64,000 bases of DNA from an uncultured Candidatus Saccharibacteria bacterium (GTDB lineage Bacteria > Patescibacteriota > Minisyncoccia > Phycocordibacterales > CSBR16-119), in NCBI GenBank assembly GCA_964531475.1, contig CAZHCS010000002.1, positions 4,548 to 68,547 of the forward strand. The letters run 5' to 3'. Shown piece after piece: positions 27,445 to 62,972 of the stretch. The position numbers and the translations under genes were made by a program. The notes beneath the pieces are model-generated. The model made no database searches. It saw only the letters and a list, made by a program, of their open reading frames with translations, and was not told where the DNA came from. Position 1 is the stretch's first letter, and every line of letters starts with the position of its first letter.

Positions 27445-27725
27445 GGCTTTCTCGCCGACCGCTCCTGTTTGTAATACAGGAGTAAAATATTGTGATTCCC
27501 TTTCGGGAAATTGTACAAAGGAACTTCGGTCCTCGGCGGAGCAGCGTAAGCTGCTCCGCACGAGAACTATACTCCCAGCTCGACACCAAGATCTATGCTG
27601 GAAAATCGGACAGCGGGCTAACGGGGTTGGACCACACGGGATCCCCTTTCTTCTTTCCCTCGTTGGCATGGGAGCTTGACGATAGTCTACGCCATCCCCA
27701 GCTTGCATAATGCCTTGGCTAACCA
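27440..27725 (-). ncRNA. Candidate structured RNA A (unknown family) ending in an intrinsic terminator on the minus strand; shares a 24-nt module with candidate B
   Basis: No ORF; multiple hairpins; the exact 24-mer GTGATTCCCTTTCGGGAAATTGTA at 27493-27516 recurs at 39235-39258. Confidence 0.35.
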
Positions 27726-27793: not shown

Positions 27794-27863
27794 GCACACA
27801 CACCTACTTTTTGATGGGCTTCGCCATGCGCCTTTGGCGCAATCAAAAAGTAGGTGTGTGTGC
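27794..27863. repeat. Palindromic repeat element, copy 1 (inverted relative to copies 2 and 3)
   Basis: cacacacctactttttgat...gcgcctttggcgc...atcaaaaagtaggtgtgtg. Confidence 0.7.
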
Positions 27864-28512: not shown

Positions 28513-28533
28513 AGATTATAGCACAGTGGCGCA

Positions 28534-28647
28534 GCGCAGGGGCTTTCAAAAAGGCTCGCCGCAGGTCCGAGTTTACAGAGGGCCGAGGCGGAAGAAAATC
28601 CGCCCTATGGGGGCGGATTATTCTGGTCTTTTTGAAAGCCCCTGCGC
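28534..28647. repeat. 114-bp element bounded by a perfect 20-bp inverted repeat with internal alternative hairpins
   Basis: gcgcaggggctttcaaaaag ...74 nt... ctttttgaaagcccctgcgc; internal ggcgga-agaaaa-tccgcc and atccgccc-tatg-ggggcggatt share the tccgcc arm. Confidence 0.6.
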
Positions 28648-28652
28648 GTAGC

Positions 28653-30047
28653 CTAAAACATAAGCTCAACACTCTCACCGCTACGCGGTACGACGGCGTT
28701 GACACCCAAGTGATCGCGCAGCTTTTGGGCGAGGAACATCGAGACGTTCGGCTCGCCCATGACGAGGAACGCTTTTTTCAAACTCTCGCGCGTCTTTTCA
28801 ACAAACTGTACCAAGTGAAATGAGTCTTTGTGCCCCGAAAAGCCTTGGATCGTTTCAACTTTTGCTCGCACGTCAATGCGCTCATGGAAAATCATGACAT
28901 CGCGACGTCCTTCTTGGAGCAAGCGCCCAAGCGTACCCGGCGTTTGGTAACCAGTCAGAAGCAGTGTCGCATTCGGGTCGGATAGATAGTTCTTCTCGTG
29001 ATGCAAAATCCTACCGCCAGACGACATGCCTGATCCAGCCATGATTATTTTCGGATTAGGCGCTTTCAAAATAGCGATGGAGTCCTGGGTCTTTTCGGTC
29101 TCAATAAGTCCCGGGAAATTAAAAATGTCATCGCCTGAATTGATCTGCTCGCGTACGGTTTCTTTCAAATACTTCGTGTGCTTCCGAAAGACATCAGTCA
29201 CGCGAATAGCGAGCGGAGAATCAAGGAATATTTTCATGTTCGGCACCTGCTTGCTCTCGACAAAGTTATTTATCTCGTACAAAAATTCCTGCGTGCGCTC
29301 GAGCGAAAATATGGGCACGACGAGTACGCTTTTTTTCTTGTGGGTATCGAGTATAGCCTGCTTTAGCTTATCCTCACGTTCGCTGCGCTCTTCGTGATTG
29401 CGGTCGCCATAGACTGATTCCATGACCAAATACGTTGCGTCGGTCACAGCTTCGGTATCAGCAAGGAGCGGCGATGGCGAATTGCCAAGATCGCCAGTAA
29501 AAACAATCTTTGTCCCGTTGTAAACGATTTCTGCCATAGCCGAACCCAAGACATGCCCCGCGTCTTTAAAGACAACATCGAGCTCACCGCCGAGCGAAAA
29601 CTTTTCGTGATATGAAAATCCTTCCCAAAGTGAAATAGCCTTGTCGATAACACGCTCGGCGTACATTTCATCGAGGCGAAACTCTCGGCCACTATCAGAG
29701 CCTGCCAAAATATTTGCCGTATCGCGCAACATGACAGCCGCCAAATCGCGCGTCGCAGTTGTAGAAATAATGCGGCCCTTGAAACCTTCGTGAACAAGTT
29801 TCGGTATTCGACCAATGTGGTCGGTATGGGCATGAGTCACAATGAGCACATCGACGCTCGCTGGGTCATACGAAAACGGGTGCCAATTCTCGAGCTCGGC
29901 CAAATGCTCTCCTTGGATAAGTCCGCAATCAATTAAGACTTTAAAGCCGCTTTCGGTCTCGATGAGGAAATTCGCGCCCGTCACCCAGCCAGCGCCGCCA
30001 GCAAAAGTCAGCTTTAGCCTCTTTTTTCCATCATTATTTTTTGCCAT
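28653..30047 (-). CDS. MBL-fold metallo-hydrolase with beta-CASP domain (RNase J / RNA-processing-like)
   Basis: VLIVTHAHTDHIGRIPKL (HxHxDH), beta-CASP region; start taken at MAKNNDG (the track ORF extends to 30083). Confidence 0.7.
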   Translation of the reverse strand: MAKNNDGKKRLKLTFAGGAGWVTGANFLIETESGFKVLIDCGLIQGEHLAELENWHPFSYDPASVDVLIVTHAHTDHIGRIPKLVHEGFKGRIISTTATRDLAAVMLRDTANILAGSDSGREFRLDEMYAERVIDKAISLWEGFSYHEKFSLGGELDVVFKDAGHVLGSAMAEIVYNGTKIVFTGDLGNSPSPLLADTEAVTDATYLVMESVYGDRNHEERSEREDKLKQAILDTHKKKSVLVVPIFSLERTQEFLYEINNFVESKQVPNMKIFLDSPLAIRVTDVFRKHTKYLKETVREQINSGDDIFNFPGLIETEKTQDSIAILKAPNPKIIMAGSGMSSGGRILHHEKNYLSDPNATLLLTGYQTPGTLGRLLQEGRRDVMIFHERIDVRAKVETIQGFSGHKDSFHLVQFVEKTRESLKKAFLVMGEPNVSMFLAQKLRDHLGVNAVVPRSGESVELMF

Positions 30048-30447: not shown

Positions 30448-30470
30448 GATGGAATAATTGTATCATACCA

Positions 30471-30545
30471 CCACACCTACTTTTTCATTGCGCCAAAAGG
30501 CGCCGGACATTGCCCATAAAAAAGTAGGTGTGGGGGCACACCCTC
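30471..30545. repeat. Palindromic repeat element, copy 2
   Basis: cacacctactttttcat-tgcgccaaaaggcgcc...-ataaaaaagtaggtgtgg. Confidence 0.7.
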
Positions 30546-30696
30546 GACAAGCTCGGGATAAAGAAAAACCCTCGAGGGAGGGTTTTTCTTTACGGCTATC
30601 CATATTATCCTAGCTTTTTGAAAAAAGTGGGTGCGATGCGGCCTAGACCACGGCCCAGGCCGACGGCTCGCTCCCCTAGGACTCATGTTCTAGATA

Positions 30697-31212
30697 ATGT
30701 GGGATAACCGTGCTTTTATTCTAGCAAATTTTCCAGTAACGCAAGACTCGACAAACTCGTTCTTGAAAAGTATAATCCATCGAAACACTGCACATACCAT
30801 GAACTACGAAGAAGGCGTCATCTACCTGTACGCTATCGCATTTACGGGGGCAGTCCTCATGCTAATAAAAGGACTTGAGTTCTCGATATCAAACGATAAA
30901 CGCACGTCGTGGACTGAACTCTGGCTGCTAACTGTAGCATACCTCTGCTCCGCCGGTTTTTTCTGGACCAGCATCATAGGCGCCATCATTTCCCTAGTAG
31001 TTGGCCTCATGGGAGGAAAACGATTTGACATCTTTTCCGCCGTACTGGCTCTGATAGCGCTTGTCTTGAATTTCACTATGTTCGGAGCCTCTTGGAACAC
31101 AGAAGGCTGGAACGGCCTCGTCGCCGGGCCCGGCTTCGGACTTGCAGTGATCGGAGGCTTCGTCCTTCTCTTTGGGGCCTACAAAAGAACGAAGGCTCGC
31201 ACGGCCACATAG
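30697..31212 (+). CDS. Hypothetical membrane protein (likely true start at MNYEEG, about 30799)
   Basis: 3-4 TM helices; no family assigned. Confidence 0.4.
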   Translation: MWDNRAFILANFPVTQDSTNSFLKSIIHRNTAHTMNYEEGVIYLYAIAFTGAVLMLIKGLEFSISNDKRTSWTELWLLTVAYLCSAGFFWTSIIGAIISLVVGLMGGKRFDIFSAVLALIALVLNFTMFGASWNTEGWNGLVAGPGFGLAVIGGFVLLFGAYKRTKARTAT

Positions 31213-31740: not shown

Positions 31741-31907
31741 AATAGTTTTTAGATTTTAATAGACGTATATTAGCATTCTGTGCCTCAAAATCAAATTAGT
31801 TTATCTCTTACTTTTGTCTTGAAACAAAAGCTCAAGACTCTGGAGAAAACGCCCACTCCTGACAAAGCGGGTGTCAATGTACCCCCCCTCCAACCAGACG
31901 AAGCAGA

Positions 31908-31987
31908 CCGGGCAAAATTCGAATCCCGAGGACCTAGTGCGAGGCGAAGCCAAAGACACGCTCCCGCAGGGTGAGAATTTTGCCCGG
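31908..31987 (-). promoter_or_regulatory. Conserved-core element X within a 13-bp terminator-like stem, 12 nt downstream of the 31999 stop and upstream of ndk
   Basis: ccgggcaaaattc-[GAATCCCGAGGACCTAG...CCCGCAGGGTGAGAA]-ttttgcccgg; core shared with 37491-37558. Confidence 0.5.
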
Positions 31988-31998
31988 ACTGCGAAGCA

Positions 31999-37423: not shown

Positions 37424-37490
37424 GAGATTAGTATACAGTATTTAGTATACGGTATACAGTATGGGTTTTACGTTCCGACTCAGCGTAGCA

Positions 37491-37558
37491 AAAATGCCGA
37501 TTTTCGAATCCCGAGGACCTAGCATAGCGATCCCGCAGGGTGAGAAAATCGGCATTTT
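37491..37558 (-). promoter_or_regulatory. Conserved-core element Y within a 15-bp terminator-like stem plus U-run, 12 nt downstream of the rpsR stop and 67 nt upstream of adk
   Basis: aaaatgccgattttc-[GAATCCCGAGGACCTAG..CCCGCAGGGTGAGAA]-aatcggcatttt. Confidence 0.5.
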
Positions 37559-37569
37559 GCGAAGCCTCT

Positions 37570-62757: not shown

Positions 62758-62822
62758 CTCACACCTACTTTTTGATCGCGCCAAAGGCGCTTGGCGGAGC
62801 CCATCAAAAAGTGGGTGTGGAG
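62758..62822. repeat. Palindromic repeat element, copy 3
   Basis: ctcacacctactttttgat-cgcgccaaaggcgc...-atcaaaaagtgggtgtggag. Confidence 0.7.
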
Positions 62823-62972
62823 ACAAACCCCTTCCCCCTCCCAGCGAAGCAGACACGTCATTAAAAAGGGCTTACCGCAGGCGCGTGTTTACAAACGCGC
62901 CGAGGTAGAGGAAAGCCCGCCTTATGAATGGCGGGTTATTCCGTGCCTTTTTAATGATGTGGCTGCGAAGCG

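Follow-up and report, generated by a model that had tools for sequence, protein, structure and literature searches.

The window analysed here is a 64-kb stretch of DNA (64,000 nt) from an uncultured Candidatus Saccharibacteria bacterium. Two hairpin elements, X and Y, lie in its intergenic spacers (Table 1). X is located between a gene for a 911-aa DUF8128/TraG-like protein and ndk, and Y is located between rpsR and adk. Since all genes around X and Y are on the minus strand, the sense reading of both elements is the reverse complement, in which the core reads UCACCCUGCGGGAKCG, an apex and CUAGGUCCUCGGGAUUC. The 17-nt left core block of the plus strand, GAATCCCGAGGACCTAG, occurs exactly twice in the window with up to three mismatches allowed, and two or more occurrences were obtained in 0 of 100 shuffled sequences. 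The right core block, CCCGCAGGGTGAGAA, also occurs twice in the window, at the places matching GAATCCCGAGGACCTAG. These results confirmed the two elements with a common core that had been described in the initial annotation. When X and Y were folded and compared with shuffled sequences, z-scores of -5.2 to -6.6 were obtained on either strand.

The gap between the stop codon and the stem is 11 nt in both X and Y, and seven of these nucleotides form a conserved motif, GCUUCGC. The motif is found again just past the 3′ arm of each element. The enclosing stems are perfect, as had been annotated, but they are longer than described: the outer stem (P1) of X extends to position 31992 by GCAG/CUGC around a U.U mismatch, giving 17 bp in total. 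The U-run reported after the stem of Y was verified. No U-run was found at the end of the X stem, and a separate terminator-like hairpin with a U-run is located downstream of X.

Table 1. Positions of X, Y and other features. Positions refer to the window unless a locus (L number) is given.
Feature	Position	Strand	Remark
X, plus-strand left arm	31908-31920	+	ccgggcaaaattc
X, plus-strand core	31921-31974	+	
X, plus-strand right arm	31975-31987	+	gaattttgcccgg
Stop codon upstream of X	32001-31999	-	TAG; DUF8128/TraG-like gene
X, 5′ flank motif	31991-31997	-	GCUUCGC; begins 1 nt past the TAG stop
X, 5′ arm of P1	31975-31987	-	CCGGGCAAAAUUC
X, core block A	31959-31974	-	UCACCCUGCGGGAGCG; CCUGCG invariant in 10/10 copies
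X, variable apical hairpin	31938-31958	-	contains internal GGCUUCGCC, the flank motif again
X, core block B	31921-31937	-	CUAGGUCCUCGGGAUUC; GUCCUCGG invariant in all copies
X, 3′ arm of P1	31908-31920	-	GAAUUUUGCCCGG
X, 3′ flank motif	31898-31904	-	GCUUCGU
Terminator-like hairpin with U-run	31845-31871	-	hairpin 31871-31852; separate from and downstream of X
Y, plus-strand left arm	37491-37505	+	aaaatgccgattttc
Y, plus-strand core	37506-37543	+	
Y, plus-strand right arm	37544-37558	+	gaaaatcggcatttt
Stop codon upstream of Y	37572-37570	-	TAA; rpsR
Y, 5′ flank motif	37559-37565	-	GCUUCGC; 4 nt past the rpsR stop
Y, 5′ arm of P1	37544-37558	-	AAAAUGCCGAUUUUC
Y, core	37506-37543	-	block A 37530-37543; short apex GCUAUGC 37523-37529; block B 37506-37522
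Y, 3′ arm of P1	37491-37505	-	GAAAAUCGGCAUUUU; ends in U-run
Y, 3′ flank motif	37483-37489	-	GCUACGC
Z1	62843-62972	-	same frame as X and Y, Z module; directly after the rplK stop
Z2	28527-28655	-	GCUACGC, 18-bp stem, GCUGCGC frame; different conserved three-way module of about 75 nt; directly after the RNase J stop
Z module in L038	5455-5575		
Z module in L042	4227-4310		
Y1_Tnp gene in L048	8320-9007		
Y1_Tnp gene in L058	9940-10624		
Repeat W, three copies	27794-27863; 30468-30536; 62760-62819		
DUF2238 leader	about 30590-30700	-	
DUF2238 leader in relatives	L014 1271-1623; L037 15795-16087; L038 10391-10637		
GTAAAAAATCCATTTT element in L017	10330-10520		
ATCCCGTTAG family	L024 9321-9442 and 12121-12238; L048 11236-11359; L058 7829-7936		
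Inverted flank-motif hairpin	27530-27565		convergent spacer after recA

A pattern scan of 185,579 species genomes gave four more copies of the element, in two Saccharibacteria MAGs. Further copies were collected from syntenic loci (rpsR, ndk, KsgA and a Y1 protein) and by a covariance-model search from the known copies. The search for additional cores, suggested with the initial annotation, resulted in a hairpin family with ten independent copies in at least four Saccharibacteria genomes, strain variants not being counted. All copies are intergenic: X and Y in the window, L001 and L004 in MAG co2_225, L002, L003, L024a and L024b in MAG co1_16, and L058a and L058b in a further genome. The genome of the window is a Saccharibacteria relative whose rpsR is 84-92% identical to that of the copy-bearing genomes, with adk being only 45-50% identical. 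In the metagenome and viral collections, the strict pattern gave one chance match only, within a coding region. Since this pattern misses diverged copies such as those of L058, the rarity in these scans says little. The covariance model built from the copies (R1) can be used for finding more of them.

The window was also compared with known RNA families. Rfam 15 gave no match at the gathering score in the whole window, and only sub-threshold generic hairpin matches were obtained around X and Y at E<=10, so that the proposed Rfam search for known riboswitch classes was negative. The ribozyme classes hammerhead, twister, pistol, hatchet and HDV-like were not detected at E<=10 in the Rfam search. 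The hairpin repeat of Saccharibacteria gene ends is real and conserved, and is undescribed as far as Rfam 15 and literature searches show. The plus-strand sequence UUCGAAUCC looks like a T-loop; however, no tRNA or tmRNA was found by ARAGORN and a T-stem is absent. A DNA uptake sequence was also rejected, because GCTYCGC is not enriched across the window (33 found versus 25 expected; 7 of 100 shuffled sequences were as high).

All copies share a common frame. From the stop codon, the order is a gap of 0-6 nt, GCUNCGC, usually AAAA, P1 (13-23 bp across copies), an internal loop, the core, the return arm, usually UUUU, and GCUNCGC again. The internal loop is small and separates P1 from a CCC/GGG helix. 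The conserved module that interrupts the stems is 38-54 nt long and rod-like; it is composed of the invariant blocks CCUGCG and GUCCUCGG, which are closed by the short CCC/GGG helix, and a variable apical hairpin. Within P1, only the A-run/U-run and 5-6 bp beside the core (AUUUYC/GRAAAU) recur, and the mid-arm sequence is free. The 5′ flank motif starts between -1 and +5 nt from the stop codon in eight of the ten copies. The stop-to-stem spacer of the other copies is 2 to 41 nt. Thus, the location immediately 3′ of stop codons is real for most copies, but the equal spacing noted for X and Y is not general.

In the initial annotation, the conserved core was placed within stems of differing sequence but maintained pairing. 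The family bears this out. About 95-97% of the P1 cells are paired across the copies, pairs changed on both sides account for 9/10 of P1, and the covariation score was reached by 0 of 500 shuffles. When the partners were slid as a control, the paired fraction dropped to 29-59%. In the short helix P2, a C-G pair is exchanged for U-A in two copies. The predicted inner helix P3 shows zero covariation and is broken without compensation in L058a and L058b, the most diverged copies. Thus, the predicted fold of the core is provisional. The z-scores of the family folds range from -2.9 to -6.6.

The outer stems are almost purely Watson-Crick. Changes giving a G.U pair in the sense strand were observed in L007, L014 and L024a, and those giving it in the antisense strand in L003, L024b and the L001 flank. 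The strain variants of X and Y have one C-to-U change each, which leaves a G.U pair in the sense strand. Since the G.U changes are about equal in number on both strands, wobble pairs were not decisive as a guide to the working strand. The nearly pure Watson-Crick stems with balanced wobbles would be compatible as well with a constraint acting on DNA or on both strands.

L003 and L004 are orthologous copies, both being located in the UvrD-KsgA spacer. No base differs between them in the core blocks or in the 5′ flank motif, although the proteins encoded on either side share only 63-65% identity. The apices are different, and the 3′ flanks show a single-base difference. In P1, four pairs have changed at both positions in a compensatory manner, and no pair is disrupted. 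Neutral intergenic DNA is not expected to stay alignable at 63-65% protein identity. Thus, the identity of the cores despite the diverged flanking proteins points to selection and not to recent copying. The stems of Y and L024a, which both follow rpsR, are homologous and differ by the exchange of a G-C pair for C-G, though adk is only 45% identical. Recent horizontal spread, instead of selection, could account for part of the core identity among genomes whose adk is 45-50% identical.

X itself occupies a site where it was gained. The spacer from DUF8128 to ndk is 258 nt with X in the window, whereas it is 32-62 nt and contains no hairpin in three relatives. Sites without an element lack the GCTNCGC motif. 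In addition, L001 and L058a, which are at non-orthologous sites in different genomes, have nearly the same P1 stem, AAAAUCUAAAU(A)UUUC. Since this stem is common to unrelated sites, it seems that the unit is copied as a whole, together with its stem. The initial annotation had considered a small element inserted into pre-existing terminator hairpins. However, most of the plain terminators found in these genomes are short, rich in GC and without the flank motif (one AU-rich 15-bp example was found in L024), and no empty frame was found in about 450 kb. Therefore, together with the P1 stem shared by two unrelated sites, insertion of a bare core into existing terminator loops was rejected.

The window contains two further elements, Z1 and Z2, with the frame of X and Y around a different module. 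The Z module is a three-way junction with two covarying hairpins, ACCAGAAUA...UUUCUUCCGCCUCGG...CCUGCGGCGAGCC; its fold z-scores are -6.7 to -8.9, and no match to it was found in Rfam. In MAG co1_16, X-type cores are present at the sites after rplK (L002) and RNase J, where the window has Z1 and Z2, respectively. The site after rpsR varies among the relatives, with X, Z-like or other modules in some and a decayed remnant or a plain GC-rich terminator in others. Thus, the X module is exchanged for Z, a plain terminator or nothing at three orthologous sites (after rpsR, RNase J and rplK). This exchange suggests that the element has a generic role at gene ends and that the module is replaceable. 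CCUGCGG and CCUCGG occur in swapped order in X and Z, but these motifs are too short to establish a relationship by circular permutation.

All ten copies have the sense orientation relative to the gene upstream of them. The two copies of L058 are separated by 2.3 kb and lie on opposite strands (L058a on the minus and L058b on the plus strand), and each follows its own gene. Thus, the orientation tracks transcription and not replication. In the window itself, gene direction and GC skew are confounded; the L058 pair led us to reject the replication strand as the cause of the fixed orientation. Taken together with the ten sense copies, this pair favours a role in the transcript.

A U-run of at least four residues is present at the end of P1 in seven of the ten copies. 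X, L024a and L024b, which lack it, are each followed by a canonical terminator-like hairpin with a U-run. X and Y were not called by a terminator consensus scan, because their loops are longer than 8 nt. The 3′ GCUNCGC motif is conserved although it lies beyond the U-run, and hence it would be missing from terminated transcripts.

Based on these results, we lean towards the view that X and Y are copies of a lineage-specific, REP- or MITE-like dispersed repeat that is kept as a 3′-end or terminator RNA hairpin with a recognition module. The element would be transcribed as the tail of the mRNA of the upstream gene and would most likely act at the RNA level, at the boundaries of transcription units. 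The frame stem would serve as an intrinsic-terminator-like 3′-end hairpin, for termination or for protection of the 3′ end, and a protein may recognize or process the RNA at the conserved module. The whole unit would multiply and be replaced, as are REP- or MITE-type repeats. Neither ligand sensing nor a particular regulation of ndk or adk would be involved. Two options raised in the initial annotation, a protein-binding terminator module and a small mobile hairpin, come near to this view and are partly supported.

The closest known counterparts are the REP, BIME and REPIN sequences of Proteobacteria, which are associated with RAYT transposases. Like the present family, they are short extragenic hairpin repeats with several copies per genome; they lie in the 3′ UTR near stop codons and keep their hairpin by compensatory changes, and they are transcribed with the upstream gene, as is predicted for the present family. 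REPs are regarded as protecting mRNA 3′ ends and as influencing termination and translation. A Y1 gene of the RAYT kind, which occurs in relatives at a locus occupied by an X-type element in other genomes, may be a further likeness. In contrast, the stem is the conserved sequence of REPs, whereas in the present family the outer stem is free in its middle part and an asymmetric apical core is conserved. The 5′ tetranucleotide GTAG of REPs is absent, and direct GCUNCGC repeats are found on both sides. Furthermore, the strictly sense orientation and the several unrelated modules in one frame are unlike REPs.

The elements also resemble intrinsic (Rho-independent, often bidirectional) terminators, since they are positioned right after stop codons at transcription-unit boundaries, have an A-run, a stem and a U-run in seven of the ten copies, and are replaced by plain terminators at the same sites in relatives. 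However, their stems are much longer and AU-rich and are interrupted by the conserved module, the flank motifs are conserved outside the A/U runs, and the three copies without a U-run are followed by a separate terminator. Pneumococcal BOX, Neisseria Correia and ERIC sequences are likewise dispersed intergenic repeats of about 70-150 nt with long hairpins and a modular build, and their presence also varies among relatives. They are transcribed, as is predicted for the present elements. MITEs have conserved terminal inverted repeats and target-site duplications of variable sequence. Here, in contrast, the arms are variable and the flanking direct repeat is constant: it is GCTNCGC at every site, often differing at N within one element. 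We know of no parent insertion sequence for the hairpin family. In integron attC sites, RYYYAAC and GTTRRRY close an imperfect palindrome after cassette genes. The present flanks are direct and not inverted, GTTRRRY is absent, and the neighbours are housekeeping genes.

The genomes of Saccharibacteria and other CPR bacteria are tiny, and hardly any cis-regulatory or non-coding RNAs have been described for them. A strongly conserved hairpin family at stop codons, with compensatory evolution over deep divergence and interchangeable modules in a constant frame, would give a handle on how transcripts end, how mRNA 3′ ends are formed and how small repeats spread in such reduced genomes.

An alternative to the 3′-end RNA hairpin is a single-stranded DNA mobile element without an RNA role. 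In this case, the hairpin and the GCGNAGC flanks would be recognized and cut by an IS200/RAYT-type transposase with Y1 (HUH) chemistry, and the elements would be REP/REPIN- or PATE-like passengers that merely tolerate gene ends. This alternative is possible but, on balance, rather unlikely. A Y1_Tnp gene (PF01797, 25.4 bits versus a cutoff of 23), whose best NCBIfam match is the REP-associated tyrosine transposase, lies in the UvrD-KsgA spacer of L048 and L057-L059. In L003 and L004, this spacer contains an X-type element, and a Y1 gene is absent from it. The hairpin CACCCCGAGGTC-SG-GACCTCGGGG (also written CCGAGGTC-NN-GACCTCGG) precedes the Y1 gene and in L048 also follows it, and the arms of this hairpin are similar to core blocks A and B, with the same polarity. 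However, this likeness is short and GC-rich and could be due to chance. The Y1 gene is single-copy and syntenic (UvrD-Y1-KsgA, 63% identity), and it could therefore be a resident gene, the hairpin being just the terminator of UvrD. Homologs of Y1 are widespread across CPR, mostly as single copies. None was found in the 64-kb window or in the examined parts of the MAGs with canonical copies. Thus, we regard the link between a RAYT-like Y1 transposase and the hairpin family as a lead from sequence comparison.

The antisense DNA strand of the flank motif reads GCGNAGC. The oligonucleotide d(GCGNAGC) forms an extremely stable DNA mini-hairpin in which N alone is free (PMC13037366), and N alone varies in the flanks. 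This hints at a role for single-stranded DNA. The nearly perfect Watson-Crick stems, the patchy distribution, the gain at one site and the P1 stem common to two unrelated sites would also be expected of a mobile element. The ends of IS200/IS605 and PATEs are imperfect hairpins that are bound as single-stranded DNA by Y1 HUH transposases, with a short conserved sequence beside both ends. TTYC before the core (eight of the ten copies) and ATTC at the core end (seven of the ten copies) recall the TTAC target of IS608. In contrast, the bias of IS200/IS605 for insertion into the lagging-strand template is contradicted by the opposite strands of L058a and L058b, no tnpA or tnpB is linked to the elements, and the hairpin of the sole Y1 gene found is merely similar to the family and not identical. 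Furthermore, all copies are sense to a gene, and the core blocks and 5′ flank are unchanged over about 35% protein divergence, which is unlike decaying passengers.

Another alternative is that the core is a specific functional RNA, such as a small RNA released by processing, a protein sponge or a new motif with self-cleaving or other catalytic activity, and that the frame only presents it. X and Z would then be alternative classes with the same job, as ribozyme classes that share contexts are. The invariant blocks within the internal loops of a rod-like fold are consistent with such an RNA. So are the unrelated three-way module Z with its covarying hairpins in the same frame and the replacement of X and Z by one another at orthologous sites. 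In addition, the two flank copies could form the base of the stem, enclosing a symmetric 3x3 internal loop, which would suit a dimeric nuclease such as RNase III. However, no Rfam ribozyme or sRNA family matched even at E<=10, and the inner helix lacks covariation. Since a plain terminator or nothing is found at the same sites, the module is dispensable at any given gene. We therefore consider a specific functional RNA doubtful.

With a similarly small chance, the two ideas may be combined as a modular marking of gene ends. A constant frame set from the stop codon would carry interchangeable modules (X and Z, with at least two further ones) and present them to one or several putative factors, and a resident RAYT-like Y1 enzyme would copy or swap the modules as single-stranded DNA via the d(GCGNAGC) flanks. 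If this is true, a domesticated transposase would maintain a functional family of 3′-end RNA elements.

The initial annotation had also proposed a ligand-responsive, riboswitch-like terminator that tunes read-through into ndk and adk. Both window copies are upstream of nucleotide kinase genes and the Y stem ends in a U-run, but this proposal is very improbable, because only L024a, the ortholog of Y, among the eight further copies is beside a kinase gene, relatives have DUF8128 and ndk close together without the element, the same adk is preceded by other modules or a plain terminator in relatives, X is 157 nt from ndk with the second terminator-like hairpin in between, and neither an Rfam riboswitch match nor a conserved alternative (antiterminator) pairing was found in the folds. 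The other genes downstream of the eight further copies are KsgA (two copies), fn3/peptidoglycan-binding, LDcluster4 and DksA-type genes, or the copy is in a convergent-gene spacer. Most downstream genes have their own -10-like box a few nucleotides before the start codon. The upstream genes are also unrelated (rpsR, rplK, UvrD, RNase J, ABC ATPase, LysM peptidase and DUF8128/TraG-like). Riboswitches with terminator platforms similarly have a conserved core closed by a covarying helix and several copies per genome. However, the present element belongs to the 3′ end of the upstream gene and is not a 5′ leader, and the genes have no functional coherence; a 5′-leader element of functionally coherent genes was thus rejected. 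Block A presumably resembles the 3′ end of E. coli 16S rRNA (CCUGCGG..GAUC), and KsgA adjoins two copies. This likeness was treated as a coincidence, since the other copies have unrelated neighbours. For annotation, the family accounts for puzzling long intergenic palindromes and gives a caution against calling them gene-specific riboswitches.

Several other features were also observed. In the 15 nt past the 3′ flank on the sense strand, purine-rich runs like GGAG or GAGG were seen in X, Z1, L001, L002, L024b, L048 and L053. The purine share of this stretch was about 69% (hand count of 17 elements). In L024b, the stretch can pair with the 5′ flank.

At many start codons, including that of adk (window, L017, L024, L027, L042 and L058), a TATAAT-like box ends 6-13 nt upstream, and no Shine-Dalgarno sequence was found between the box and the start codon. 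This arrangement suggests that mRNAs in this clade may be leaderless or nearly leaderless.

A conserved structured leader is located upstream of a DUF2238 gene. It contains …CCUAGGGGAGCGA…CGUGGU…CGCAUCGCACCCAC…GCUAGGAUAAU…GAUAGCCGUAA, followed by a terminator hairpin. The leader is kept among relatives with 45-50% adk identity, and Rfam gave generic hairpin matches only. Judged from its sequence, it looks like a riboswitch with a terminator platform.

The window also contains a third repeat family, W, with conserved arms of 17-22 bp (CACACCTACTTTTTGAT) and a 26-nt loop with GGGCTTCGCC. Two of the copies have this loop in one orientation and the third has it inverted (flip/flop). In L017, the rpsR element is followed by another hairpin element, about 200 nt long and with GTAAAAAATCCATTTT as its arms, which is missing in L022. 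As L017 and L022 encode an identical S18 protein, the element is a presence/absence polymorphism. In another repeat family, conserved arms (ATCCCGTTAG...) enclose about 90-110 nt, and the 3′ arm extends into the next gene's start codon (…CTAACGGGATG). Finally, the convergent spacer after recA in the window contains an inverted flank-motif hairpin, GCGGAGCAGC-GTAA-GCTGCTCCGC, which is preceded by GGTCCTCGG.
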